Shown: positions 7,331-35,430 of the stretch, piece after piece
How positions within the stretch are numbered: the stretch's first letter is position 1
Layout: every line of letters begins with the position of its first letter
Source of the DNA: Spironucleus salmonicida
Lineage: Eukaryota
Length of the DNA: 64,000 nucleotides
Assembly (NCBI RefSeq): GCF_000497125.1
Contig: NC_090597.1
Coordinates: forward strand, 817,797-881,796
Direction of reading: 5' to 3'
Position numbers and translations under genes: made by a program
The notes under the pieces: model-generated
Databases searched by the model: none
What the model was told of the DNA's origin: nothing
What the model saw: the letters and a program-made list of their open reading frames with translations, nothing else

Positions 7331-8952
7331 GCGCAAATGGTCATAAAATTCCGTCTAAATTCTGTAGTTCGCAGCAGCGCAAATCTCGAAGAAGGAAAAT
7401 CAAATGCTGAAATTACATGTTTCCTTATATACGTGATAGTAAAGGTTCCTACACGAACTGTGCGATTAATTGCGTCAAGATTGGCGAAAAGTGCTAAGTA
7501 GAGAACTGCCAGACCTGTTCAATGGACATAAAAATGTGTGTAACGTGCAGAAATAATTTCTGTTTTAACGGTGGGAGATGCGAGGTATGCCGCGATAACA
7601 AGTCAGAGTGCCTGGATAAATTGTGTCACATGGGGGGGAAATGCAGATAAATACAAAAACTTCGTCGGTAATTTTGGCCCTAAGGAGGCTCCCGCGTGCA
7701 TTGAGTACCTGGATGGATTTTTCAGGTCTGAAACTAGGGGTAAGCGTATTTGTGCCGCTTGCTCGAAGAAGTGCATATAGTGCACATCAGTAGAGGTGGG
7801 CAAGGCCTGTTATGGCGCTAATTGCAAGGTCTGTTCTGTTGATAATAATAGCTGCGGTACATGCAAAACTGGTTACAAGCTCTTTGGCGGGAAATGCGAG
7901 TTGGAGTGCAACACTGGCGATATAGTCTGCACAGTCAACCAAATCTGCCTAGACACCTGCAAAACATGCTAGGAAAACTGTACGAGCTGTTAGGATACCG
8001 TGACCAACTGCAAAAGCTGCGTTCCTGACTTTGCTTTAGATGGCAGTTCATGCGCGGCGTGCTCTGCAGGCTGCACAGATTGTGCTGGAGACAAGAACGT
8101 GTGCAATCTCTGTAAAGATGGCTATTTCGGCATCAACGGGGCCTGCTAGTCGTGCGAAATGAACACTACCGCGCAGTGCGAATGCTCTGGGGCAGCTAAC
8201 TGCGCAACCTGCACAATTGCTAAATCCGGCACTTGCGGCACCTGCATCGCCGGCTACAAAATGTCAGCTAGCAACACATGCTTTACCGCATTCAAATGTA
8301 CCAGTGACGTCTATATGTCCTATTTAGTAACGCTAATACATACATTGCAGAGACTCATTGCAAATACAGCGAATTTTGCGATATACCAGACTCTGGGAAT
8401 ACTTGTATTTGTTTCATGCTTCCTGTGAGAACCCTACTAACTTAAAACAGTGCACAAAACTACGCATGATATTAATACAGGTCAGACCTGCACTTGATAT
8501 AGCGAACCGACCATGGGAGTTTACAAGCATGCATAGAAAAAAATTAGCATCTATTGTAACAGCTCATTATAAAACTACCTATATACTGTCCTATTGCTGA
8601 TAGGTTTGCTACCTACCAGGATATTCCAGTATCAGAATAGAGCATGCCCAACAATACTTTGTAAGTGTAGAATAGATAATCTAGCGTGTACACAGCTTGA
8701 GTAGATAATCGTAATTGTATTTTTATATATGAAAAATTCACTGGGAAATTTACTAATAAATTCGTAATTTGCCATACTGGCTATCCCTTGAAAGAAGATT
8801 TTCACAAAGATTGTGCAGTAGGTAGTTAAAAAGTTGACTATACCTGTTATTAAACGTTAATAAGCTCGAGTATAAGTCTATCAGTAGCATGTTGGCTGGA
8901 GTTATAATAGTAGTGGGCTCGCTTATTACTTCATTAAGAAATAAAGAAATGA
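7330..8952 (+). pseudogene. CRMP1-type pseudogene with an intact core
   Basis: Clean CxxC frame over ~7810-8290, frameshifted flanks and a remnant tail GLAYYFIKK near 8920-8950. Confidence 0.8.
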
Positions 8953-9721
8953 TGTTGAATAATATAGTTTTATAATATGAAAAATTACAGAATTAAATTG
9001 ACAAAATAGAAATTTTAATATCAAACGCTTGATAATATTAATAACTTATATTGCGATTATAGAATATGTAGCGATATTTAATTTTCAAATTTTAGGTTGA
9101 TAACATTAAGTGATACTGTGAAATATTTTTCTGCTTAAAAGATTAAGTCATGTGAATTGATAAAAACTGAAATTCTTACAGTTTCTATAACTGTGCGATT
9201 TTGATGTTTTTGAAATAGAATGTTGCGCTACGGATGAATTGGGAGTGAATAGCTAAACATGCAAAATTATAGATTTTATTTCTTAGTTTTGCTTGAAGTC
9301 AATCTTTACGAATAATTATTAATTTTGTCACTATCAAAATCAAGTTTTTTTTATTTAGTTAATTTATTAACCAATTTAATGTATAATAATAAAATAAAAA
9401 TTAATAAGTTTTTGGTATATTTGGTCACTATCGAAATTTAGTAATTAATGATTTGAAAAGCGTAAAATTTACATTCAAATTTAATATTAGCATGATAATA
9501 ATCACAAATGGAATATAAAACATAAGATTGCTTTTTCATTTATGATGCTAATATTATAAATAAAATAAGTTATTACTAATGTATTAAGAAGTGTATTTGA
9601 AATATGTGTTTCATATAAAAGTATAATCACTTATTATTTAAAGACAATAAGAAACCGAAACTCATATTCCTTATGCATATCCAATATGAATATAAGAATA
9701 ACTATTACATTTATTTTAAAA

Positions 9722-10729
9722 ATGGACAACAAATGTACAGATTCTGATACGACCACTTGTAGTACTGGATTTTTCTGTCCTGCTAACGCTGAGGACAGTG
9801 GTACTGCATGTACGGCATGTTCTGCGACTTGTGGCACCTGTGCTGGACCTGATGCCAATATCTGTATGTCTTGCGCCGACGGTAAGTTTATCAGCTCCGG
9901 TACCTGCACAGCCTGCGATGGTAAATGCACGAAATGTGCTAATAGTGCTACTGAGTGCAGCGAATGCAAACCAGGAAATCTGCTTTCTGGAACCACCTGC
10001 GAAGCCTGCCCGACAAATTGTGAAAATTGCGCTGGAGACAAAGCAGTATGCTAAATATGTTAGAACAGTTATTTTTTAAAAGATGGTAAATGTACTGTGT
10101 GTAATGGAAATATGACGGAAACATGCACGTGCGGCGACGCAGTTAACTGCGCTACCTGCAGTAGTGGCGATAGCAAAATGTGCGGAAACTGCATCACTGG
10201 CTACGACAAGCATACAGATGGTACCTGTACTATCTGCGATAGGGATTATTTAATGGTAGGAATGGTGTGCAAAAAATGCAACGATAAGTGTGCTACGTGT
10301 TCCAAAGGCCTTGATTTATGTGATACATGTAAGCCTGGTAATCAGATTACCATCAACTAAACCTGTCAGGCTGATTGTAATCCAGTGCAAACAGATGGAT
10401 AAGCCTGCGTTGGGACCGGTACTACAGCATGCGGAAATGAAGCCCAAATAACGGAGTGCAAGTGTACAGATGCGAAGAACTGCTTAATCTGCGGAACTGA
10501 TAACACTAAGTGCGGTTCCTGTCTGCCTGGATACAAGCTAGAGGCTGATGAATGTAAAAATTGCGATGATGGGGTTGAACAGACTGGAGACTTCTGCTTC
10601 GCCCCCAGAAAGGAATCTGGGAACCTCTCAGGCGGTGCGGTGACCGGAATTGTGATTGCTGTGCTGGTGGTAGTAGGAGCTGTCGGAGGGGGTCTAGCGT
10701 ATTACTTCACCAAGAAGGCGAAGAAATGA
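9722..10729 (+). CDS. Cysteine-rich membrane protein 1 (VSP-like), 335 aa
   Basis: MDNKCTDSDTTTCSTGFFCP...[35 protein letters not shown] then TGA. The track ORFs 9686-10054 and 10097-10360 join through TAR codons. Confidence 0.95.
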
Positions 10730-12077
10730 TCAAAATATTACAAAATTAATAGAATAATATATAATTTTATTTATATTTAAGTGTCAAGATTTATATATAC
10801 ATTATAAATTCTATTATTGACTAAACTATGATAAATAAATATAAAGTACTATTCGCCAGAATAATTTTATAATTTAGGCTCAATAAGTCGTTAGTGATGC
10901 GCTCACTTATTCTTTCTATTGTCAGCAATTAAATTTGATATCAATATTTTAAAATATGTTTAAAATATAAATAAAGTTTCCATATTCAGTTTTTGCAATA
11001 TTATTATTTATATATACAGAAATTTGTTTAACAGTGAATATCATAACTATATAATCATATATTCCCGTATTGCTACATAAGTCTCATTAATATTACTCTA
11101 TATTTAGTTAATTTTCCTTTACGAATATTGTAAATGATGTAGTATACTATGCAATAATGAATAATAAAATATATTCATAAATAATATTTTTATGCTTTAT
11201 CGTTTGTTAACTAATACTGACTCAATTTACAAAAATTTATATCTAATGCGTTAATCCGCTTACAATTATTTCAACTTTTATTACATCATATTTAATTTAT
11301 GATAATTTAAACTCTTTATTTAACATAAATAATAAGTACAAAATTAAAATTCATTATTATATTCAGGCTGACGTTAAATCGCATTTTATGTCGTAGTTTG
11401 ATATTTTAATTGTCAAATATTAAGTCTATTTACACAAAATCTAAAATTTATGTAGTTAAGCGACTGATAGCCTAAGTATATTTATCCTATACTACTCTTG
11501 CTTGTATAAACTTAATATTTTAAATAGGTTTTGCAATAAAAATATACTCTCAATTTGGAACCCAATACATAGGATTCATATTCGCTATTTAAGCCTTTCC
11601 GTGTTATTATTTTTACTTATTTGGAAGTTTAAATTGAAGCCCTATGCAAGAATTTTAACTATGCAAATTATCTATTAATATACTTTATAATTCAAATACC
11701 AATTATTTGAAATCTGTTCTATTTGCAATTGAAAATTACTACAACACTGCGTCTCACTAGTCCAATCTAGCGTTAAGCGACACGCAAACTCCACGAATTA
11801 TGCGCAATGCAAAATATGATAAACTGATGTTCACATACTCAAATAACATTACTTTTAGCACCGGAAGCTAACTAACTTTATTACTGCATGCAATATTTTA
11901 CCATCTGAAGCATAGACTATCAATTGCGGCAAACTTGTGCGATATAAGCTAGCAATGTCGTCTAGATTCAGTTTCGTTAAATTAAGTTGGTTTCATTTTC
12001 ATTTCTATTAACATTACAATTCCTCCCATTGATATTCCCATTCTATTCAACTTATATCACATTCCCTTCCTCCCCCT

Positions 12078-13361
12078 TCACTTCACTCCATTTTTACTCA
12101 GAAATAGTAGCCCCTCGCTAAATTTCCCCCCAGGACCCTCGCTAAAACGCCCAATTTCGCTCATGCAGCCCCCGCAGCGCACCCAACGCGATCCTGCGTC
12201 CCCGCTTTTGTAGTCAAGAAAAATGTGAATTAGAAATTGATTTTCCACTCCTAAAAGTGCGCCTTTCCGCTTCTTTGCGATTAGCTCGAGCTCGCTTTTG
12301 CAGATCAAAATGCCGCATTTTGCGCAGCAACTCGGCCTCGCGACGCTGCTTTCGGCCTTCAAATCTTCGCTTTTTAGCGCGATTTGCGACACTTAAATGC
12401 CGTTTTCGATGGTCGGGAACCGATTTGAGAGAGGGAGTGAAAAGTCGAATTTGAATTAGTTTTCTTGAGTAATTTTTTCGCTCAAAACCGCTCCAATTTC
12501 CGCACTTTCGAGTAAAAAGCATTCAAGTTTCCGGTGCGCTGATAGTTTTTCGGACGAAATTGCCAAATTTGAGAGCGAAAGCGCTTTTTTAGATAGTTTT
12601 TTCAGCAAAATTGAAGCGGAATTTTCGCGTTTTTCGAAGACGTTTTGGAGCTCATTTTCGAGGCTTTTGAAGCGGTTTTCGACCTTTCTGATTAGCTCGA
12701 CTTTGAGCGATTTTGCCTGGTCCAGCGACAGGCTTAACAGGTTCTTATTCACCTCGTTAATAGATAATACTTTGTGGAATTAATTTTTGAGGCTCACGAC
12801 CAATTCTCGTGTTAAATTAGATAGTTCTTGAGTATTTGCCTTCATTATATCATAAGCTAAATTAATTGGAAGAATGGTGTAGTTGCAGTAGGCGTTATTT
12901 TCAGAGCAAAATTCGCAAAGTAGCTGGTTCAATTCCGGGCAGAAGTGTGTTATTTTTTAAACTTCAAAATTGCTTTTTACGAGCACAGAGCTCTACAGGG
13001 CGCTTTGGTGGGTGTCGCACATGCACGCTAGGGGCTATATTTGCTCGTTGATGCGCTCTCGAACGTGGGAGTGGAAAACTGAAATTGAGTGGATTTCGAG
13101 GTCGCACTTCTCGCAGAGTAGGGTATCGCATGCACGGCAGGCGACGGCGGCGGTAGCACTGCAGTTCTTGCACCTTTCAGCGGGCCTGACTCTGGCGTTC
13201 TGCAGTGGCTGGAAGTCGAAGGGGCAGGAGCAGTCAAGCGCCTCCGCGCAGCACGCCGCGCAGAACGCGTGTCCGCAGTCAAATTCGCTGAATTCGTCGC
13301 TCGCTTGGAAGCAGAAATCGCAGTAGCTGCCGAACGGGAAATCGGGAAGCTCAGGATGCAT
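12078..13361 (-). CDS. RING / B-box / B-box-like / coiled-coil (TRIM/RBCC-like) protein with C-terminal Yippee/Mis18-like zinc domain, 427 aa
   Basis: Track ORFs 13035-13361, 12456-12752 and 12078-12392 share one frame joined by TAR codons. RING: CDFC..CGHAFCAAC..CPFD. B-box: CKNC..CRAC..LCEKCDLEIH..H. C-terminus: CAKC...CGGC..IG. Ends AAG TGA. Confidence 0.9.
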
Positions 13362-13725
13362 TTTGCGGAGCGGAGTTAAAAATACTAATTGTATATAGTT
13401 ATATTAATATAAAATTACGTGAAATGCGAAAAAATATATAATTACTAAATAAATCATATAATAATAAGATAAAATATTGTGGAGGAAAATTTATGATTAT
13501 TTTAATGAGTAGAAGACAGGTTGAGTTGGGAAGGCAAATGGGTAAATTATTACGTAAGATAAGGGAGAGGTGGGGTTTGATTTTGTATACCTAGGTTTGG
13601 AAACAGATCGGTAAAAAAAACAATTATGTTGAAAAAAATCTGATTTGTTGTATTAATCTATAATAATGATATTAAGTATGAAAAATATCTATTAATAATT
13701 ATATATAATAATGGTGTAGTAATTA

Positions 13726-14217
13726 ATGAGTATAAAAATAACAGTTTTGATTACTGGGCCTGCTGGAGCTGGAAAGAGTCAGTTTATGTATTAGCTTCTA
13801 GATAATAGTTTTACTGAAGTTCATGTATCAATGCCTCAAATTGCACAGAAAGTACTAATTGGACATCCACTGTAACCATACGTAACATTCGCTGAAACCG
13901 AGTTAAGATTTTATTAGAACGCAAATATTTGTATTTTATGTATTGACGTGAGAAAACCTTATTTATTGTCCTAATAATACAATTTAACTCGTCAGGAATT
14001 GCCCAACAAAAACTGCCTACTTACAATATTAGGGACATTTTCTGATGTTGCTGATAAGGCATAAATGGATAAATTTATGTTATTGGGACAGAAGCTTGGC
14101 CATGTTTTTCTGTGTAGCAGTAAGCTCAGGATTGGGGTTGAAGAAGTAATTTTGGCTTCCATTAACGAATACATCGAAAAGTATTTTGTTTTTGACTGCA
14201 GCGTTAAGGGGTTATGA
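13726..14217 (+). CDS. Divergent Ras-superfamily small GTPase-like protein, 163 aa
   Basis: MSIKITVLITGPAGAGKSQF (P-loop), FYQNANICILCIDV, LTILGTFSD (G4 position) and FLCSSKLRIGVEEV (G5 position). Confidence 0.85.
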
Positions 14218-14479
14218 AGTACAAATAGAGGAATTACTAGTTACTTGTTGTTTTTAGTTAACTGTAAAAACTATATTTAATATTAAATATTTTTTAATTG
14301 TAAATATTTATTGGTATTAGTATTATTATAAAAAATTTAATTTTTACAGCACTAGATTCTTTGTAAATAATCTAAATTAATATATAATGGATGATTACTT
14401 CGAAAAGGATTCTTTAAAGTGATAGCGAAAAGTTTATTATAATTTAAATAGTAATATATTAAATTTAGAATAAATAAAA

Positions 14480-16030
14480 ATGATAAAGACTATATAAACA
14501 ACCTAGTATGTTATTCCAGAAGGAATCGATGTAAAATAGTTAATCAGCATACTAACAAAATATTAAAATGCTAAATCAGTTCATTAATTTTAATATAAAA
14601 TAGAAGAAAATATACTTATCATTATTTAAGATTCATTTAAATTCACGTTGGCAGATTTTAAGGAAAACTAAAAATTATTTACTATATAAGAAGCATACAA
14701 CCTCATAACGAAATGTATTTACGCATCCTATGATCTGGCTTAATAAAATTTATTTATAGGTGGATATAGGCTTGATGATTTTATCGTTATCTTGAAGAAA
14801 AAATGGATTAAAATAAAAATTGTCCTTAATATTAAAAAAATATTTTAATATTTAACAGCAAATTACCCATCTTGTATTGCACCTGAGGTTTTAACGAATA
14901 TTATTACAGAGAAGGCCGACTTTTGGAGTTTTGGAGTTCTTTTATACTATTTATTAAAAACTAAATATAAAATACACAAAGATGTTTTTGATAGGTACAG
15001 TTAAGTTAGTTTCTTAGAAAGTCTTCAGATATAGAATAAAAAATTTGTAGACTTTATTTCAAACTTGATTTAACAAGATTATAACTTACGATTAGGATAT
15101 ATTTAATATTTCTAATTTGATAATGAAATAAGAAATGTGTGCCTTCATAGTAATGATATTTAAACAATAAATACCTCTACGTTCGACTAAGTTTTATCAA
15201 GTTTAAAGCTGGATAAAGTTAGAAATTTAGGTCAAGGGTCCTTTGGAAATGTATTATTAGTCAAAGATAAAACCGCTAATTAATTTGCATTAAAGGTTGT
15301 TGAAGTTCGAAACTAAATGGAAATAAACCAAGCTAGCTCAGAAGCATGCTTTATGGAGTAAAATAGAAACAATAACTATATAATTTAGATAAAATTTATG
15401 AAGAAAGTGCGCATTAATGATAAATTCTTTGTATTATTTGGTTAAGAATATGCGGATTTTGGTGATTTAAGGTACTTTATGAGAATGTATGGAACATAAC
15501 TATCTTAAACTTAGGTTTTAAAATTGTTTTATGATCTTTCATAGGCATTATTATTAATGAAAGAGTAAAATATGATTCACCGAGATATAAAGCCTGAAAA
15601 CATACTGTTAATGTAAAAAGACAACAAAATAATTGCTAAGCTTGCAGACTTTGGTTGTGATGAAGTTTTATTGAATGGGTCGAGCTCTGATTGTCATCAT
15701 TTAATAGGTACACCAGGATATATTGCACCAGAAGTACTTACATAAGACTAAGTATCGTTTTCCGTTGATGTCTGGAGTTTTGGTGTAATGCTTCAAGAAT
15801 ATACGGAAGAATAAGAATTGATTTCAATGTGCTTAATTGAAGATTAAAATTAACGAGCTTAAATTGAGGTTATCAATTAAAAATTACAAATCTATAAAGA
15901 TTAAGTAGTATAGGTACATGAAGTTGAATAATCTACAAGCTCGGCAGTTTCACACTCATAATATAATTCTGTTAATTTATCTGAACTAAATAGTAACTTT
16001 ACTTTTAGCGACTTTGCTATATTATAGTGA
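14480..16030 (+). CDS. Tandem pseudokinase + Ser/Thr kinase (NEK-like), copy 1, 516 aa
   Basis: The C-terminal domain has LGQGSFGNV, FALK, EYADFGDL, HRDIKPEN, ADFG, GTPGYIAPE and DVWSFG. The N-terminal domain keeps only APE and ADFWSFG. Ends TAG TGA. Confidence 0.92.
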
Positions 16031-19000
16031 ATTTTTTGTAGGTTTATATTTACACCATATAGATTTATTCATTGTGGTGTTAATATCAGTCATTATTAAA
16101 TTTGATTAGTTTATGTATATAAAATTATATAATATTGTTTTTTTAAGTTTATATAAAATAATATTAACTTGTAAGGACGTCGATTCCATAATTAAATTAT
16201 ACTAATAAAATATTTTTAGTATTTTAACAAATTTATTATATAATATTTATAAAAATAATACAACAATTTGTGTTTAGACTTAATTCAGAAAATAATTTCT
16301 ATGATTAGTTATATAAAGTATTGATTTACTTATGCTAAAACTATAATGAGTAATTTATTTAGAATAAACCAAAATTTACCTATAAATTGATTGTATATAT
16401 TTAGTAACTTAAATTTTATACAGTATAATACATATTTAGAGATTAAAATATTTTTAAAAATGAGAACAACAAGTTAGTCGTCATAATACTAAATACCATC
16501 TGGTGTGAATATTTAATAATTATAGGATATATTAAATAGGTACCTTAATGCTAAGTCTGTACATCCTTTTGAATATAAAATTACAACAGATTAGATTATA
16601 ATTACATAGCAACCAATATTGTAGACTTTAGCAGGGTTTAAGGAATAATAAAAACTATTTACAATTTAGGAAGCGTACAATATTCTCACTAAATGTGTGT
16701 ACGCGTCATATGAGCTTGCTCAGTAGTCTATATTTCTTGGTGGTTATTGTTTAGATGATTTTGCTATTCAAGTATAAAAGAAGTGGATTAGAATAAAGAT
16801 TGTAGCCAATATTTCAAAGATTTTTAAATATTTAACTAGATAATTTTCAGACTGTACCGCCCCAGAAGTTCAATAGAATATTATTACAGAAAAAGCTGAT
16901 TTTTGGAGTTTTGGTGTTATCTTATACTATTTACTGAAAACTTCATACCAAATTCATAAGGATATATTCGATAGATATAGTCAATCGTGCTTTCTGGAAA
17001 GTCTGCAAATTTAAAATAAAAACCTGGTTGACTTATTAACCAATATGATAGAGCCAGATCATAATATCAGACTAGGTTACATTTAGTTCTTTACACTGGA
17101 TAATGAAGTTCGATCTACCTGTTAAGGTATAGGTCACATTAAAACCGTAAATACAGCAACCCTTGACCAAGTATTGCTTAATTTGAATCTTAAAAAAATT
17201 ATGCAAATAGGCGAAGGGTCGTTTGGTAACGTATTCCTGGTTAAAAATAATGATGGAGATAAGTTTGCTCTTAAAATTATTGAGGTCAGGAATTAAATTT
17301 AGATTAACCAGGCTAGTTCCGAGGCTTGTTTTATGGAGTAAAATAAGAACAATAATTCGATAATATAAATCAAATTTATGGAAAAAGTACGAATCAATGA
17401 CACTATTTATATCCTCATGTGCTAGGAGTATGCAGAATTTGGCGACTTGAGACATTTTATGAAACTTTATAGTTCTTAACTGGCATAACCTCAAATCCTT
17501 AAGCTGTTTTATGATATTTCTCAGGCAATGCTAATGATGAAAGAGTAAAATATGATTCACCGAGATATAAAGCCTGAAAACATACTGTTAATGTAAAAAG
17601 ACAACAAAATAATTGCTAAGCTTGCAGACTTTGGTTGTGATGAAGTTTTATTGAATGGGTCGAGCTCTGATTGTCATCATTTAATAGGTACACCAGGATA
17701 TATTGCACCAGAAGTACTTACATAAGACTAAGTATCGTTTTCCGTTGATGTCTGGAGTTTTGGTGTAATGCTTCAAGAATATACGGAAGAATAAGAATTG
17801 ATTTCAATGTGCTTAATTGAAGATTAAAATTAACGAGCTTAAATTGAGGTTATCAATTAAAAATTACAAATCTATAAAGATTAAGTAGTATAGGTACATG
17901 AAGTTGAATAATCTACAAGCTCGGCAGTTTCACACTCATAATATAATTCTGTTAATTTATCTGAACTAAATAGTAACTTTACTTTTAGCGACTTTGCTAT
18001 ATTATAGTGAATTTTTTGTAGGTTTATATTTACACCATATAGATTTATTCATTGTGGTGTTAATATCAGTCATTATTAAATTTGATTAGTTTATGTATAT
18101 AAAATTATATAATATTGTTTTTTTAAGTTTATATAAAATAATATTAACTTGTAAGGACGTCGATTCCATAATTAAATTATACTAATAAAATATTTTTAGT
18201 ATTTTAACAAATTTATTATATAATATTTATAAAAATAATACAACAATTTGTGTTTAGACTTAATTCAGAAAATAATTTCTATGATTAGTTATATAAAGTA
18301 TTGATTTACTTATGCTAAAACTATAATGAGTAATTTATTTAGAATAAACCAAAATTTACCTATAAATTGATTGTATATATTTAGTAACTTAAATTTTATA
18401 CAGTATAATACATATTTAGAGATTAAAATATTTTTAAAAATGAGAACAACAAGTTAGTCGTCATAATACTAAATACCATCTGGTGTGAATATTTAATAAT
18501 TATAGGATATATTAAATAGGTACCTTAATGCTAAGTCTGTACATCCTTTTGAATATAAAATTACAACAGATTAGATTATAATTACATAGCAACCAATATT
18601 GTAGACTTTAGCAGGGTTTAAGGAATAATAAAAACTATTTACAATTTAGGAAGCGTACAATATTCTCACTAAATGTGTGTACGCGTCATATGAGCTTGCT
18701 CAGTAGTCTATATTTCTTGGTGGTTATTGTTTAGATGATTTTGCTATTCAAGTATAAAAGAAGTGGATTAGAATAAAGATTGTAGCCAATATTTCAAAGA
18801 TTTTTAAATATTTAACTAGATAATTTTCAGACTGTACCGCCCCAGAAGTTCAATAGAATATTATTACAGAAAAAGCTGATTTTTGGAGTTTTGGTGTTAT
18901 CTTATACTATTTACTGAAAACTTCATACCAAATTCATAAGGATATATTCGATAGATATAGTCAATCGTGCTTTCTGGAAAGTCTGCAAATTTAAAATAAA

Positions 19001-19744
19001 AACCTGGTTGACTTATTAACCAATATGATAGAGCCAGATCATAATATCAGACTAGGTTACATTTAGTTCTTTACACTGGATAATGAAGTTCGATCTACCT
19101 GTTAAGGTATAGGTCACATTAAAACCGTAAATACAGCAACCCTTGACCAAGTATTGCTTAATTTGAATCTTAAAAAAATTATGCAAATAGGCGAAGGGTC
19201 GTTTGGTAACGTATTCCTGGTTAAAAATAATGATGGAGATAAGTTTGCTCTTAAAATTATTGAGGTCAGGAATTAAATTTAGATTAACCAGGCTAGTTCC
19301 GAGGCTTGTTTTATGGAGTAAAATAAGAACAATAATTCGATAATATAAATCAAATTTATGGAAAAAGTACGAATCAATGACACTATTTATATCCTCATGT
19401 GCTAGGAGTATGCAGAATTTGGCGACTTGAGACATTTTATGAAACTTTATAGTTCTTAACTGGCATAACCTCAAATCCTTAAGCTGTTTTATGATATTTC
19501 TCAGGCAATGCTAATGATGAAAGAGTAAAATATGATTCACCGAGATATAAAGCCTGAAAACATACTGTTAATGTAAAAAGACAACAAAATAATTGCTAAG
19601 CTTGCAGACTTTGGTTGTGATGAAGTTTTATTGAATGGGTCGAGCTCTGATTGTCATCATTTAATAGGTACACCAGGATATATTGCACCAGAAGTACTTA
19701 CATAAGACTAAGTATCGTTTTCCGTTGATGTCTGGAGTTTTGGT
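15557..19744 (+). repeat. Apparently perfect tandem repeat, period 1980 bp
   Basis: By eye, the base at position i equals the base at i+1980 from ~15557 to ~17764, including the AT-rich intergenic spacer. Confidence 0.93.
16460..18010 (+). CDS. Tandem pseudokinase + Ser/Thr kinase, copy 2 (chimeric)
   Basis: Same architecture and length as copy 1. The 5' part appears identical to copy 3 and the 3' part identical to copy 1. Confidence 0.88.
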
Positions 19745-19990
19745 ATAATGTTATAGGAATATACACAAGAGTAAAACCTTATTTCTCTTTGTCTGATTGA
19801 AGATTAGAACGAGCGTGCGGCAATTGAAAAAATAAACGAGTTGTTGAGCGTGTATAAAGACATAATAGTTTAAGTGATAGAGGTGGAGCCTTCAGTAAAT
19901 TCATTCACCGCCAGCTCTGAGTATAACTCTTTAAGCATATTGGAGCTGCAGAGTAACTTTACCTTCAGCGATTTTGCTATTCTAGAATGA
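18440..19990 (+). CDS. Tandem pseudokinase + Ser/Thr kinase, copy 3
   Basis: MRTTSQSS...IGEGSFGNV...HRDIKPEN...DFAILE then TGA. Confidence 0.92.
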
Positions 19991-29319: not shown

Positions 29320-29937
29320 TTAATGAATTTTGGAGCGAAATCAGAACTTGGAATGGAATAATATATAAATAATATACATTAAATAGTATAATTAGTTTAT
29401 TTTTTCATGCTAATGTAAAAGAGGAACGTGATAAATTCGGTATAGCAAATCAAAAAAATGAAATTTGTTACAAGGGGAGTGGAGGAAAATACTAAAGATT
29501 TTGGTGGGTGTGCTAATTCGAGTTTAACGGTCGAAATAATGACTAAAATTGATTTATTCAAGTGGTATGTAGAGCGGATTGGTAGGATTTGAAAGTTTTG
29601 AGCAACTATAGAAGTTTACAAAATTGTAGGAAAGTAATGTATTTTTTGCATTATACTAGTTATAATAGTAATAAAATTCACAGGATTCACAAATATATTT
29701 ATGTTTAGATAAAGTTCGTTTCAAAATATAGCGATAGAAATACGGTGTTTTTTGAGAATAGTATGGGAATTTTACCAATATGGAGATAACGGCCGAATTA
29801 GATTTTATTAAATTTATATAGAATAAACGTTTACAGGTAGTTCTGTATTATTAAACCATATTCAATAAATATCACAATTAAAAAATACCTTGTATTTGAT
29901 ATAATAACGATATTTACCTTGTTCCCCACTTCACAAA

Positions 29938-32900
29938 ATGCTGATCACGCAGTCCAAATTTTCCAACAGAGGCAAGTTCCAGTAGCTAACTGTTAACGAC
30001 CAGCAGTATTCTCTGACCGTCCATAAAATCTTCAAGCCGAGAAAATTTTTGCTGCGGCGTAACGACTATGTTGTGTCTAATCAGAGCCTCTACCAGGTGC
30101 AGTCTGACATAACTATGCCTACACTGACACCTGGATTTTCCTACAAGAAGCTCAATCAGCAAAAAGTATCTGTTGTAAAGTTTGAGTAGCCTGGAACTAG
30201 CCTGTTCTTCCCGTCTGCACTTCCCGAGCTGATCAGAATAGGCGACATCGCACACTTTACGGACATCTTCGAACCCGTGGGAGCCGACGTCGAGCAGGCA
30301 GGGGTGCTCCTATCCATGCATGCCGTTTAGCTGCTTCAAAGCGGCGTGAACGAGAACCTTGTAGTGCCTAAGGCCCTCAAAGTAGAGAAAGAAAATATAG
30401 TGGGAAAGCTTGCACTTTGCTTTGCTGTTTCCCAGTTATCTCCGGGGAACGTACTCCCGGCCTGTAGCCAGCCAGATAACTAAATGGGCGACCTCAAAAA
30501 AGCTATAATTGATCTCGACTATCCTCGCATTAAAGTTCTAATTTCAAATATAAAAGCTTTCAATTCCCTGGAGTTGCAGTAATTACAAGAGCAGAACTGG
30601 ATACTCGACGCTTTCAAGGATAACATGGTCGGCAAGTACGAAAGCTACTGCAAGGAGGCCATGGATATCTGCCTCAGCTTCGAGAAAGACAGCATGTTTG
30701 AGCAGCTCAAATATACGCAAATTGCTTTAAAGTTTCAGGAAAGCCAACCCAATTCGCTGCCATTCAGAAGCATGCTCAATTTGAGCCTGGACGATCATCG
30801 CTAGCTGGTCTAGGTAGATATTAGGGTTCCTGAAATTTTCAACCAGCTTTGCATAAAGTTAAGCTTTTAGTCGCGTAAGATAAGCTGTTCGGCGCCTTCC
30901 CCGCAAAAAGATCTCCAGGTGCTCCAGAATGCCTATCAGACCAAAAACCAAAATTTCGTTAAGCAGGCGCTTGCAAAGATTAGCATCATGAACGTCCAAA
31001 TGCGCGAGTTGGTAAAGTGCTTTTAGAACTCCAATCTGCAGGAGAAAGACATAAAGGCCGTTTTCACTTCGAGCTCGCTGTAGTCTTAATTCTGCGCGTC
31101 AATAACCCCTTTAGAGGTGGGAGCGTTCTTCGGTTCTCGCGGGATCGTCGATAAGCTCTAAGATATTGAGCTAGACGGTAAGTAGCTGGATAATGTACGC
31201 CAGCGCATAGCATTTAGCGCAGCATGCAATCTTAAGGATGACGTCGACCTCTTCAAGTTCTACTTAGAACGAGTGGATTACAAACAGATGAACTACTAAG
31301 AGCTAGCAACCGCCAGCTTCATCGCGTTGAACAAAAAAGTATACGCCTACCTGGTACAAAAGCACAAAGTCAACCTGAGCTTCACGCCAGAGTAACGCTC
31401 TATGCTCACCGCGCATCACGTTGGCTTGTTGCTCCAAATGGGCTATTGCACCGCAACTGCGCTGTCTGGCATGCTGGACATCCTCCCAGAGGCCAAAGTT
31501 TTCGAAATTCTGCAAATCGCCATTCTGGACGGAAATTACAAACTGTACGAAAACGACCTTTTGACTCAGCTCCTAATCCGAGGAAACATTCAGTCCAGCG
31601 ACCTGATACTCACCTCAGGCTACTCTTTCCAAAATTCCAATTTTGATTATTCTGCCATGCGATTTTTCAGCGACCAGATAGTGCACAGACTGACTTAAAT
31701 AATCCAAAAGTAACTTTCGTAAAATGTTTAAGCATGTTAAGTTGGTTTTGTTGACTAGCTCGTATGCGGCCTGGTGCAGGAAGGTAGACTCGAACTCCTC
31801 AAAGCTGTTTTCGATACATTCTTCGCTAATTTGCACCTCGAAAGTCAGCTCAACGTTGTGGATCTAGTAAATGCCTGGCTAACACTAAACAAGAAGGATG
31901 ACTTAACTTTCCAAGTGCTCATAGACTCGCTAAAATCGATTTCCGACACCCTCAAAATCAGTCTTATCACCGGCGTCACGGTCTCCCAAATTTTGCTAAA
32001 ATTCGCCAAAATCTCGCAGTAGCTGCCAGCGGAAATACAGCAGACCCTGCTGACTCTCTCAAGCGGCCCATACGCGATCCTTAACGGACTGTATCCTTCA
32101 GATTACACGCATTTGCTTTTTGCGCGCACAATTTGCGAAAGCATCACTGTGTTTGATTGCGAAATAGCGCCATTTTTGTGTTCTATTGCTAGAAACATCG
32201 GCGACCAAAACTCGCCCTGCCACAACTAGTGTTAGCAAGATATAATGAAAACGTAAGGCCAGATACTCGATTTGTTATTCGGCCAAGTTCAGCTTTTTGA
32301 CATGCAAGTCAAAGGAGATATGTTCTTATCTGATGTTTTGGCGGAAAACGCATACAAATTTACAGTTTCCTAGATTGACATTCTAATCGCTAACTATCGT
32401 CCAAGACATAGCGAAGGAGCTGTTTGCGCTCCTTTGCCAGAAAATCAGCTCGCAAAGCTGCAATCTGACATCGAGGAGTTTTATTTAGTGAAATCCCCTC
32501 AAGTTCAGCTTTAAAGCACCTCATCTAGCACCGTAAGTAAGACTTTTACCGTCCGCGCGAATTTCTATCTGCTGGAAAAAATTGTAAAAAGATCTGTTGA
32601 GTTGCAGCTGACAAGCAGCGACATCTTTTCCATTTTCAATTCTATACATCTGTCGCAGCCATCCGAAGCCGTGAAACTCGCAAATACTCTTCTGCAGCTC
32701 AAATTTACGAGCTACTCAATCGCCGTTCAGGGCTTTGCGCGGAATTCTTCTCAGCTACTCATTGCTCTAATTCAGTACCTGAAGACCATGTTGAAGACGA
32801 AGTTTTACGACCTCATGACGGACAATTCGCACACCGATTACTTATTTTTTATAGTTGCAAATTAGCTGCAGCGCGACGACGTGGTCATATTCCTGCAGCT

Positions 32901-35430
32901 GTTTTCTGACGCCCAACTGAGCATTCTAAAGGCGTTGAAGTCAAAAGGCGGCAAAATTTTGTTCGAGGAGCTGCTGCAGCGCTCTCCCAGCCCCGTTTAT
33001 GAGCTTTTCTTGGAGGGGGCCATCAATAAAAATCTGGACACCTGCGCGCATATTGTGCTCAGAGATGGTAGAGAAGTGGAGCAGACAGCGAGTTCGAGAT
33101 AATGGGGGGTACGTTAAATGCCATAAAGTACTTAATTCAGCTAGAAGTAGGTCCTGGAGGCCGTGCAAAAGCACACCGCATTAGCCCCCGCAATGCTGCT
33201 GCTCAACGCGCAGGGGCTCTCGCCAGTTCATTATATCACCTCCCTTCCAGCGTTCGAATTTCTAGTCCAACAGGGCGTAGACCTGAAGCGTATCGACGCC
33301 GGGACGTCGCTTTTCGCGCTGATGGAGCATTTGGACTTCGAGGTCGTACTATTCCTGGCCGATCAGGGCGCTGAGCTAGTGCAAGTTTCCGCTCCACTCC
33401 ATTCCTTTTCCTCCCCTTCCATTTCAACTCCTTTCCACCCTTCCACATTTTCCCCTCCACAACCTTCCCTTCCACCCATTTCTCGCTTTTTAACTACCTT
33501 CAATTTGACCCAAATAACGCAACTTTGCGACTCAAACCTCATCACTACGCTCCAGCTAACGCAGGAAATACTGCGAATTGACAGCCGCGGAGAAATGGCA
33601 AAATTCAAGAATTTCCTCTGCAGAGAATTCATCTTTTAAGACTTTTAGACCGCGAAATTGTTCGCGACCTCGCTCGTAAACGACTGGTTTTTCGAAACGG
33701 ATTTGGTGAAATTGAACGAATTTGCGATCAAATTCGGTCTTTTTCAACATAAAAATTTGTTTGAAAATGTGAAATAAATCGTTCAATTTAACCCTCGGAC
33801 TGTGACCGTTTGCGAGCGTGCGAATTACGCGCTTTGCGACGAGGATAAATTGAAGCTCATTCAGTTAGTTAACATTTACGGCGATTAGTGCTACGGTTTG
33901 GATAAGTTTGTGTGTAAATTCACGTATTTTCATGCTATTTAGAGGGTATGCATAGGAATTCTAGGAGATTAAAAAGAGGTTGCTGGGGAGTAGATTGAGG
34001 TGCTTTAGGCGAGTTTGGGATATTATGATTGCAATATGAAGGCGTTATAATATATTATTAACGCGTTTTCGTTCACTACGATTTTGCAGTGTTTGGAGGT
34101 GTTTTCGGCGTTTTTCAAGGAGTAGGTTACGGATGAAATGCTGATTTCGGCTTAAATCGAGGGGATTAACGTTTTGGAGTATGTCGAAAATCGACTTATC
34201 GGCAAATCTGGGACTTAGCAGTTTGGAAAATTTGTAGCTAGGCTTCGGGCGATTATGAAGTGTGAAAATGCTGAAAAATTAGTTATTAGGTAGCCGAAAG
34301 TGCAGAAACTCTAAACTCCGGCGTTTTTTGCTGAGGTTTCTCCTACTATTGTAAAAGCAGCAAATCCGGTGCAGTTTTAGAACAACTTTTCTCACTGTCA
34401 GGGGTTAGTTGTCTATAACTCAGTGCCGCTTTCTCTTGTCTTTATTCGTCAAATTTCTCAAAGCAAGGTTTAGTATCACCAGTATAGGCTAGAATATGGC
34501 TCCGTTAGTTCATTTAAGTTGAGCACATATCATGATAATCTATAGATAAGAGATTCTTTAGATTTAAGCGAGCTATAGTAGTTTTAAAGGAAAAAGAGAT
34601 ATTAGTAGCAGTTTAGCGACATTGATAGCGCATATAACGAATTTTCGAGGCTGATTAAAAATAAATTCTCAGCTGAGATTGTCAATCAGCGTCTGGTTTG
34701 TAGGGATATCAATATCGCATCCGTCGTCCTTTTCAGTTAAGATGTGGTCAATTTGGAAGATTTTTAAAATTTAATAACAAGCTGCAAGAACGTCTTGAAC
34801 TCGACCCCGGCGTCTAGTTTGACGGAACTTTTAAATTATGCTATGAACGAAAAACTAGATTGCAGGAATATTGTTGCCTTTAATGACAGCGCAGATTTTA
34901 CTAATATGTCTCCCCAAGAGCTCCAGTAACATTTCCTCAGCACCTACTAGATCTACTACCCATTAAATCATATAAAAGATAACTAATAAGTTGTTTTAAA
35001 CTATCGTGAGCTCCTACTTTAGCAGCTAAACGTTAATCTTTAGTTCGCCAATTTCTTTATAGCGCGCAAACCGCTTGATATTGCGGCTCTAGTAAATTTG
35101 CTTGGATATGAGTTCAGCGCGAGCTTCCTCTTCTAGAGCAATGTGCCAGTACGCTTGATTTTAAAGGCACCGCTTATTGAGAAAGGCGAAGTAAACTAAC
35201 CATGCGAGCTGATTTCTGGTAACAATTCTCACAGAACGTACCACACGAATTTCGTTGTACAGGGCACGTTCTTTTGGCTCGAGAGCATGAACAGTAAGAG
35301 CCTGCGTGCGGAGCCGTATAGCGATTACAAGTACGTGTACAGCAACAACGAGATCCAGCTGCAGTGGCTGGACGCGTCCGGGTACGGCAAGGACGAGGCA
35401 AGCTGCCTTGTGATGTTGAAATCCGAGTGA
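29938..35430 (+). CDS. Large (~1830 aa) protein with ankyrin-like repeats
   Basis: Same-frame track ORFs (31402, 31774, 32602, 32881, 33163) join through TAR codons. Ankyrin-like segment NAQGLSPVHYITSLPAFEFLVQQGVDL...HLDFEVVLFLADQGAEL. Ends GAG TGA. Not every codon was checked. Confidence 0.85.

Follow-up and report, generated by a model that had tools for sequence, protein, structure and literature searches.

The DNA analyzed here, a stretch of 64,000 nucleotides from the diplomonad Spironucleus salmonicida (hereafter the window), carries on its reverse strand, at 12078-13361, a single gene for a 427-aa protein in which a RING finger is followed, in this order, by B-box 1, a B-box 2 that is degenerate, a long helix and, at the C-terminus, a zinc domain. 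The first four parts make up a RING-B-box-coiled-coil (RBCC) module like that of the TRIM ubiquitin ligases, the C-terminal domain (hereafter the tail) models as a β-tent and belongs to a family of which we found seven sequences, and Giardia muris possesses an ortholog of the whole protein. Considering this architecture, we regard it as likely that the protein is a dimeric TRIM-like E3 ubiquitin ligase whose β-tent tail serves as target-binding module for a probably anionic ligand. An earlier note, made from the DNA letters alone, had proposed the same architecture; all five parts were recovered with computational tools, which confirms its observation and lends support to its interpretation. 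The gene and its domains are as follows.

12078..13361, reverse strand: coding sequence for 427 aa, followed by a TGA stop (12078-12080), with TAA and TAG read as Gln; identified by translation, collinearity with G. muris, a rise in G+C and sequencing contigs
13215..13322, reverse strand: RING finger, aa 14-49, C14-x2-C17-x11-C29-x-H31-x2-C34-x2-C37-x8-C46-P-F-D49
13065..13172, reverse strand: B-box 1, aa 64-99, C64-x2-C67-x7-C75-x2-C78-x4-C83-x2-C86-x4-H91-x5-H97
12885..13025, reverse strand: degenerate B-box-2-like finger, aa 113-159, C115-x2-H118-x22-C141-x7-C149-x2-C152-x6-C159
12462..12866, reverse strand: helical coiled-coil region, aa 166-300; the homodimer is predicted to be antiparallel about a dyad near aa 224-227
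12348..12461, reverse strand: linker, aa 301-338, with no confidently predicted structure; its residues 305-330 contact the partner in the dimer model
12081..12347, reverse strand: C-terminal β-tent (Yippee/Mis18/CULT-like) zinc domain, aa 339-427, as modelled with AlphaFold2 (AF2) and compared using Foldseek, VIA-align and the ESM Atlas

A single gene read with TAA and TAG as glutamine

The earlier note had joined three separate open reading frames (ORFs) into one gene, and translation with table 6, in which TAA and TAG encode Gln, returned the full 427-aa frame. Under the standard code the frame is open from the ATG for the first 108 aa only, and its longest three stop-to-stop pieces are aa 1-108, 195-301 and 324-427, which fits the three ORFs of the earlier note. 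The frame is interrupted in that code by six TAA/TAG codons, which fall at aa 109, 123, 135, 194, 302 and 323. Because a neighbouring ORF with 42 TAA/TAG codons matches a protein kinase (E value of 3e-45), we conclude that this code is in use here.

Since table 6 opens 64 ORFs of at least 200 aa in the AT-rich window, many of them overlapping, the length of an ORF is no evidence for a gene. This abundance, together with the degenerate B-box 2 and its insertion with two TAG/TAA codons, would fit the view that there is no functional gene at 12078-13361, only a table-6 ORF arisen by chance, a pseudogene in decay or an assembly mis-join. We consider this explanation hardly credible in view of the following evidence. 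BLASTP aligned aa 6-426 collinearly with the G. muris protein GMRT_14683 (E value of 8e-20, 24% identity), across all six TAA/TAG codons. The zinc ligands are conserved, and the tail by itself found relatives with phmmer E values of 5.5e-8 and 5.4e-5 among 1.84 billion proteins. The G+C content is coding-like, at 40-60% within the gene vs about 20-30% in the flanks. Finally, the whole ORF lies on gapless single contigs, with 0 differences and no joints, in four of four public sequencing runs; these runs come from one study, their labelling as RNA is a guess, and they are possibly the source of the assembly itself. Taken together, these results confirm that 12078-13361 is one real gene and not a chance ORF.

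11366..13360, no strand: single-run contigs carrying the whole ORF and 550-700 bases past the stop, namely 11499-13360, 11391-13353, 11533-13353 and 11366-13353

The same contigs leave 10800-11365, ~13361-13709 and ~14257-14490 without cover and cover the genes in between, a transcript-like appearance that was not used as evidence. The start codon was taken as 13361; an alternative in-frame ATG lies upstream at 13457, within AT-rich sequence. No second copy of the gene was found in the window, a profile scan of its six frames having given this gene alone. A word search with the whole protein gave the self-match only.

The RBCC module

The RING lies where the earlier note had put it (~13212-13322) and ends with CPFD, as stated there. 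Its eight ligand positions are all filled (C14, C17, C29, H31, C34, C37, C46 and D49), D49 being presumed from the sequence to be the last zinc ligand. When the window protein was compared with solved structures, it matched the RING of TRAF6 (E value of 0.0038), with CPFD aligned on CPVD, as well as those of BRE1 and TRIM31. A profile built from three full-length family proteins retrieved 64 solved sequences at E ≤ 1, the best 60 of which were nearly all RING ligases, with TRIM39, TRIM69, TRIM5, TRIM21, TRAF6 and TRIM2 in the lead; the TRIM39 RING scored an E value of 3.7e-4, and those of TRIM69, TRIM5, TRIM21 and TRIM2 followed with values up to ~3e-3. The matches extended collinearly over RING-B-box constructs of TRIM21 (E value of 0.0016) and TRIM2 (E value of 0.0031). 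The first six RING ligands were invariant in all three full-length proteins.

B-box 1, expected at ~13050-13172, was found there with eight of eight ligands. Pfam matched zf-B_box to aa 62-98 (E value of 5.3e-5) and also reported an ANCHR-like B-box (E value of 9.8e-5), while the comparison with solved structures returned the B-boxes of CONSTANS (E value of 3.5e-4). The second finger had been described as degenerate, and its Cys/His pattern is indeed incomplete. The B-box 2 consensus is C-x2-H-x7-C-x7-C-x2-C-x5-H-x2-H; here the spacer is x22, the final His pair is absent and there is an insertion of ~15 residues containing the two TAG/TAA codons mentioned above. C113, C141, C149 and C152 are nevertheless invariant in the three full-length proteins, and the profile aligned over 110 positions (127-236) to the B-box2-coiled-coil of TRIM5 (4tn3_A, E value of 0.0024; 5w9a_A, E value of 0.0098) and, weakly, over positions 125-155 to the B-box2 of TRIM21 (E value of 0.18). 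An intron within the insertion was considered and rejected, as the frame is kept, the ends do not resemble splice sites and the contigs carry the stretch unspliced. Searching the ESM Atlas with aa 1-330 gave a concordant picture: by features, all 10 listed matches were RING/B-box clusters (0.92-0.95), and by structure the matches were TRIM36, TRIM25, TRIM28, TRIM2, TRIM45, TRIM29 and PML, with template modelling (TM) scores, normalized by query, of 0.52-0.60, and included TRIM_CC clusters.

The coiled coil, announced at ~12460-12850, corresponds to the helical region aa 166-300, which contains only one Pro and one Gly. To score dimerization, two copies of aa 110-330 were folded together and evaluated with the interface score ipSAE alongside three controls. 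The pair reached an ipSAE of 0.55 vs 0.00 for the best control, and three runs agreed in at least 93% of contacts, with a predicted local distance difference test score (pLDDT) for the partner of at least 76. The tightest inter-chain contacts were 220-231, 209-242, 195-256, 188-260, 224-224 and 227-227; because these pairs sum to about 448-451, the two helices run antiparallel about aa 224-227 in the model. The B-box-2 region, like aa 305-330, also contacts the partner chain. In calibration, the mark used for this score was reached by 21 of 30 same-chain pairs vs 0 of 23 single chains and, for eukaryotes, by 17 of 29 pairs vs 0 of 30 singles, but by only one of the seven pairs without an older solved relative. 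The helix is thus predicted to form an antiparallel TRIM-like homodimer.

A number of observations weigh against reading this module as a working dimeric ligase. The Pfam scan of the window protein reported no RING model, and B-box 1, at 23.7 bits, fell 0.4 bit short of its cut-off of 24.1. The domain search proposed in the earlier note therefore returned zf-B_box just under the cut-off and neither a RING nor a Yippee-Mis18 model for the window protein. Several Pfam RING models do match the G. muris ortholog, with zf-C3HC4 at 21.4 bits vs a cut-off of 21. An Arg or Lys linchpin after the last ligand is typical of many active RINGs, but here that place is taken by Phe. Full-length AF2 modelling with three sequences reached a pLDDT of only 34.5 and gave no usable domain placement. 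The heptad signal is clear for aa 213-264 alone (36 of 2000 shuffles reach that level), and because TRIM coiled coils have already been solved, the dimer score may reflect the memory of the predictor or mere likeness to them. Moreover, certain TRIM proteins that bear a RING reportedly have no detectable ligase activity (PMC11992055).

An alternative is that the protein is an RBCC scaffold devoid of ligase activity, a dimeric adaptor that clusters whatever the β-tent binds and uses its RING and B-boxes for assembly. The missing Pfam RING match, an Asp as last ligand with no basic residue behind it and the precedent of inactive TRIM proteins would fit such a pseudoligase, and so would the loss of B-box 1 from the Giardia orthologs, which indicates loose constraint on the N-terminal module. 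Yet the six leading RING ligands do not vary among the full-length proteins, and a CP-x-D ending is found in active RINGs such as that of TRAF6, to which the window RING aligns. The RING also retains the Pro after its seventh ligand and a hydrophobic residue between C14 and C17, both of which contact the E2 in RING ligases. We therefore think a pseudoligase unlikely and retain a TRIM-like E3 ligase as the preferred reading of the module.

The C-terminal domain and its relatives

The tail was modelled with AF2 from an alignment of seven sequences. The model had a pLDDT of 71, about 90 across the last 50 residues, and a predicted TM score of 0.64; it consists of seven strands, and both CxxC motifs fall within hairpin turns, where they would form a zinc site, C346-x2-C349-x46-C396-x2-C399. 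The elements referred to below are:

12315..12326, reverse strand: putative zinc knuckle 1, C346-A-K-C349, in the turn that connects model strand E27-29 to E35-37; Cys invariant in the 6/6 sequences that reach this point
12261..12278, reverse strand: basic loop A362-K-K-R-K-G367, family pattern A-[KR]-[KH]-[QR]-K-G; inter-strand loop of low pLDDT
12165..12176, reverse strand: putative zinc knuckle 2, C396-G-G-C399, in the turn that connects model strand E74-79 to E85-89; invariant in 7/7 sequences
12138..12152, reverse strand: signature strand G404-R-F-S-E408, G-R-W-S-E in most relatives

Foldseek against the PDB placed YPEL5 first (E value of 3.8e-4), followed by cereblon, Mis18 (TM scores of 0.61/0.65) and MsrB1, thereby recovering the Yippee-type β-tent fold. 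With VIA-align, the best superpositions were on Mis18 (Z scores of 10.6, 10.4 and 10.0; root-mean-square deviation of 2.4-2.5 Å over 86-87 residues), then MSS4 (9.6) and bacterial cereblon (9.0-9.4). In an exhaustive search of 48,161 representative chains, only 32 had Z ≥ 2, and ranks 1-29 were essentially β-tent proteins, in the order Mis18, cereblon, MSS4, YPEL5, MsrB, the C-terminal domains of LGP2/MDA5/RIG-I, DUF427, DRH-1/3, GFA and TCTP; the Z scores were 9.8-10.6 for Mis18/Yippee, 8.5-9.4 for cereblon domains, 8.0 for YPEL5 and 6.5-6.7 for the RIG-I-like C-terminal domains. The search also ranked a few ribosome and spliceosome chains, to which no identity was assigned. A model of the tail from the Atlas itself matched cereblon, Yippee-like, SelR and CULT entries, with TM scores by query of 0.64-0.73. 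The families so ranked are those that make up the β-tent superfamily (Yippee, Mis18, CULT, MsrB, RIG-I C-terminal domain, MSS4, GFA, TCTP and DUF427) in the definition of PMC4287342. Because the structure searches and the Atlas model point to the same families, the assignment of the tail to the β-tent fold is solid for a predicted model.

The resemblance to Yippee is much fainter in sequence. Pfam Yippee-Mis18 (PF03226) did not match the window protein even at E ≤ 10. Four of the seven family members gave a weak echo of it at E ≤ 1 (best E value of 0.006), and the family profile met YPEL5 at an E value of 0.75, with both CxxC motifs in register. YPEL proteins share the consensus C-x2-C-x19-G-x3-L-x5-N-x13-G-x8-C-x2-C-x4-GWxY-x10-K-x6-E, in which 52 residues (x52) separate the two Cys pairs (bioRxiv 10.1101/2023.07.31.551286). 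In the tail family, G-x8-C-x2-C-x4-G is kept in 7/7 sequences and GWxY is replaced by GR[WF][SA]; the window protein separates its Cys pairs by x46, two Giardia proteins do so by x52 and three short proteins by x50, the remaining sequence being a fragment that lacks the first pair. The features that define the other candidate families are missing too. CULT is defined by a three-Trp ligand cage (PMC4287342), and the tail domains have one or two Trp each, with a single conserved aromatic column (the W/F of GRW/GRF). MsrB enzymes carry a catalytic RxCxN near the C-terminus (bioRxiv 10.1101/2023.07.31.551286), which none of the seven sequences has at that place; the family has [FY]-[LI]-S-x-N there, with Ser for Cys, and the sole match to RxCxN lies at the first CxxC knuckle of the G. 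muris protein.

Four facts speak against a closer tie to Yippee or limit the confidence in the model. The tail reached no Pfam cut-off, the best member scoring 17.2 bits vs 26.6 for PF03226, and the full YPEL consensus was fitted by 0/7 members. The alignment behind the AF2 model held seven sequences only, and the pLDDT of the five models ranged over 50-71. In addition, the Z scores for Mis18, MSS4 and CULT lie within about 1.5 of one another and single out no closest subfamily. The parallel with Yippee drawn in the earlier note accordingly holds for the fold, by Foldseek and VIA-align, and fails for sequence membership. Because the defining features of YPEL, CULT and MsrB are missing, we regard the tail as a separate small β-tent family near Yippee/Mis18, one beyond the reach of Pfam models at their cut-offs. 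Its signature is C-x2-C; A-[KR]-[KH]-[QR]-K-G-x-L-x-G; G-x-P-x-S-R-x-V-x-C-x2-C-x4-G-R-[WF]-[SA]-[EQ]; [FY]-[LI]-S-x-N-x-V, and an alignment of four tails has 24 invariant columns, including both CxxC, K-G-x-L-x-G, S-R-x-V, G-R and S-x-N-x-V. As a separate observation, Pfam HECT_2 also gave a weak echo in five of the seven members (best E value of 0.004). HECT_2 is the E2-binding family of UBE3D, and a further link between this fold and ubiquitin ligases is possible; a text search found no literature joining UBE3D and Yippee.

To assemble the family, 1.84 billion representative proteins were searched by phmmer, aa 303-427 serving as query, and four matches had E ≤ 0.001: the query, P0002 (141 aa, E value of 5.5e-8), P0004 from G. 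muris (E value of 5.4e-5) and P0003. The latter, a 961-aa repeat protein matched in seven short stretches, was dropped as spurious. Profile searches added the Giardia-type full-length protein P0005 and the short proteins P0006, P0007 and P0008, so that the seven sequences comprise three RBCC fusions and four short forms. The short forms (P0002, P0006, P0007 and P0008) come from public assemblies, measure 81-141 aa and share a conserved helix-like N-terminal leader; they could be free-standing genes or terminal exons. A scan of metagenome contigs with the tail profile produced 57 pattern matches, none of which was confirmed.

P0004 is GMRT_14683 (TNJ26402.1), deposited as hypothetical and named "RING-type domain-containing protein" in UniRef. 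Like the window protein, it and P0005 have a RING, a B-box-2-like finger, a helix and a β-tent tail and are collinear over the whole length; unlike it, they lack B-box 1, end their RING with the canonical C-P-L-C and have the x52 spacing, which is exactly that of YPEL. By its sequence, then, the gene is not unique, G. muris having an ortholog-grade relative. Protein searches of this family did not detect an ortholog in Giardia intestinalis, which may be due to loss or divergence.

Considering that the top structural matches of the tail are the Yippee-like domains of Mis18 (Z scores of 9.8-10.6), the protein might instead correspond to Mis18 in diplomonads and be a chromatin or centromere-licensing factor that oligomerizes through its Yippee-like domain and helix and has acquired a RING. 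Mis18 likewise joins a Yippee-like domain to an oligomerizing helix, as described in PMC4818781, and the conserved AKKRKG looks, in our reading, like a nuclear localization signal. However, the domains stand in the opposite order to those of Mis18 and include a RING/B-box module, the tail is 10-14% identical to Mis18 domains, the scores of Mis18, MSS4 and CULT are almost tied, and the sequence profile matched YPEL5 only, weakly, and not Mis18. The failure to detect the gene in G. intestinalis would also be odd for an essential centromere factor. We thus consider a Mis18 counterpart most unlikely, and return to the TRIM-like ligase.

Proposed function, known counterparts and neighbouring genes

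How such a ligase might work follows from the order of its parts. The antiparallel helix pair would form a rod with a RING/B-box head at either end, and this pairing would return the two C-terminal β-tent domains toward the middle of the rod, as in animal TRIMs. The 89-residue β-tent domain would stand in for SPRY, NHL, MATH and other target-binding domains, and the ligase would ubiquitinate whatever the tail binds, as animal TRIMs do via SPRY or NHL. We infer this activity, the receptor role of the tail and the nature of its ligand from the architecture and the comparisons that follow.

One conserved cradle of the β-tent receives the ligands of cereblon, YPEL5, Mis18, MSS4, MsrB and the RIG-I C-terminal domain. 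PMC4287342 describes this cradle as a hairpin inserted after the second strand plus a C-terminal meander, and gives as equivalent contact residues the W and Y of Yippee GWxY, W99/Y101 of CULT and H111/F113 of MsrB. In a hidden Markov model alignment to YPEL5, G fell on G and R405 on the YPEL5 Trp, and by this analogy we placed G404-R-F-S-E408 at the ligand-contact strand represented by Yippee GWxY, CULT GW.Y and MsrB GHVF. The A362-K-K-R-K-G367 loop may, by the same comparison, sit where the cradle hairpin is inserted. The outward cradle positions of the tail family would then be an invariant Arg and Ser instead of aromatic residues. Because this putative cradle is basic and non-aromatic (invariant Arg, Ser, Lys/Arg loop), an anionic ligand seems likeliest, and candidates would be nucleic-acid ends and peptides that are acidic or phosphorylated.

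Compared with animal TRIM/RBCC proteins such as TRIM5alpha, TRIM25, TRIM21 and TRIM2, the window protein shows the same succession of RING, B-box 1, B-box 2 and coiled coil, a coiled-coil dimer that is antiparallel (here by prediction) and a C-terminal target-binding domain, the type of which varies among TRIMs. It differs from them in its β-tent tail, degenerate B-box 2, RING ending in Asp and diplomonad host. The C-terminal domains of TRIM classes I-XI (COS/FN3/SPRY, PHD-bromo, NHL, filamin, ARF, MATH, TM) are not known to include a β-tent. The likeness to animal TRIMs may reflect either common descent or independent assembly of the same parts. According to Marin 2012 (PMC3503706), the MATH-bearing, TRIM37-like 'Subfamily A' is the only TRIM group found outside animals, excavates included. 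Members of that group resemble the window protein in being RBCC proteins of non-animal eukaryotes and differ from it in their C-terminal MATH domain, Pfam having found no MATH in the window protein. An inventory of the G. intestinalis ubiquitin system reports TRIM similarity confined to RING domains, plus two B-box proteins (PMC7029713). Literature text searches, which do not extend to InterPro architectures, found no description of a RING-B-box-coiled-coil-Yippee protein. TRIM ligases are treated as essentially animal, and a diplomonad protein with a RING, two B-boxes and a predicted antiparallel coiled coil widens their range and provides a case on which an ancient origin of the RBCC module can be weighed against repeated assembly.

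The tail shares with the Yippee/YPEL and Mis18 domains (PF03226) the β-tent fold, the two CxxC knuckles and G-x8-C-x2-C-x4-G; unlike Yippee, it has GR[WF]S for GWxY, lacks the aromatic cage predicted for Yippee and is fused to an RBCC module. Cereblon CULT, in the substrate receptor of CRL4, and YPEL5, in the CTLH E3, are β-tents that serve a ubiquitin ligase, and the tail, in its presumed role, would be the third such case. Cereblon and YPEL5 are separate subunits of multi-subunit ligases, whereas the tail shares its chain with the RING, so that here the β-tent is fused to the putative catalytic chain, and its cradle looks basic, not aromatic. The natural ligands of Yippee-type domains are largely unknown, and a ligase-tethered version in transfectable parasites provides a route to their targets.

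The C-terminal domains of RIG-I-like receptors, which work with TRIM25 or Riplet, are also β-tents coupled to a TRIM-type ligase. The RNA ends that they read are anionic, and by analogy the tail, with its basic loop and its invariant Arg, may have a ligand of this kind. Unlike the window protein, RIG-I-like receptors have a helicase, and their structural score lies below those of Yippee, CULT and MSS4. RIG-I is reported from animals only (PMC4287342). A bolder proposal, to which we give little credence, is that the tail acts as the sensor of a phosphate-bearing ligand (such as an RNA/DNA end or a protein terminus that is phosphorylated or otherwise modified) in cis with a TRIM-type ligase, as a protist analogue, on a single chain, of what the RIG-I C-terminal domain and TRIM25/Riplet, or cereblon and CRL4, do together in animals. 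If so, RBCC ligases with ligand-sensing β-tent heads would have existed in early-branching eukaryotes, and in the free-standing relatives of 141 aa this sensor would occur without an effector.

The genes flanking the TRIM-like gene encode Cys-rich CxxC membrane proteins and kinases; taken with the genetic code and the Giardia ortholog, they fit a diplomonad that reads TAA/TAG as Gln, which the earlier note had assumed. Past its stop, the contigs extend for 550-700 bases over 11366-12077, where G+C is 30-38% and there is no convincing ORF; Rfam had no match at E ≤ 0.1 for the 950 bases that follow the stop, and this region could belong to an exceptionally long 3' end or to a neighbouring transcript that is not annotated. 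At 13666-14217 on the forward strand, head-to-head with the TRIM-like gene, is a 183-aa P-loop GTPase-like ORF (Ras family, E value of 2.8e-5, 24.2 bits vs a cut-off of 21.6), and the same four runs cover 13710-14256. Two Cys-rich proteins with CxxC repeats are encoded on the forward strand at 7337-8428 and 9542-10729, neither with a Pfam match; the second ends in a membrane helix and a short basic tail (…YYFTKKAKK) and recalls the variant-surface/Cys-rich membrane proteins of diplomonads. Farther away, at 29701-35430 on the forward strand, lies a table-6 ORF of 1909 aa, which contains 72 TAA/TAG codons and matches no Pfam family at E ≤ 0.001. Three tandem genes for 516-aa protein kinases occupy 14480-16030, 16460-18010 and 18440-19990 on the forward strand with a period of 1980 bases, and each contains 34-42 TAA/TAG codons read as Gln. 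Copies 2 and 3 are identical over the N-terminal half and more, and copies 1 and 2 over the C-terminal part; this mosaic identity suggests recent duplication with gene conversion.

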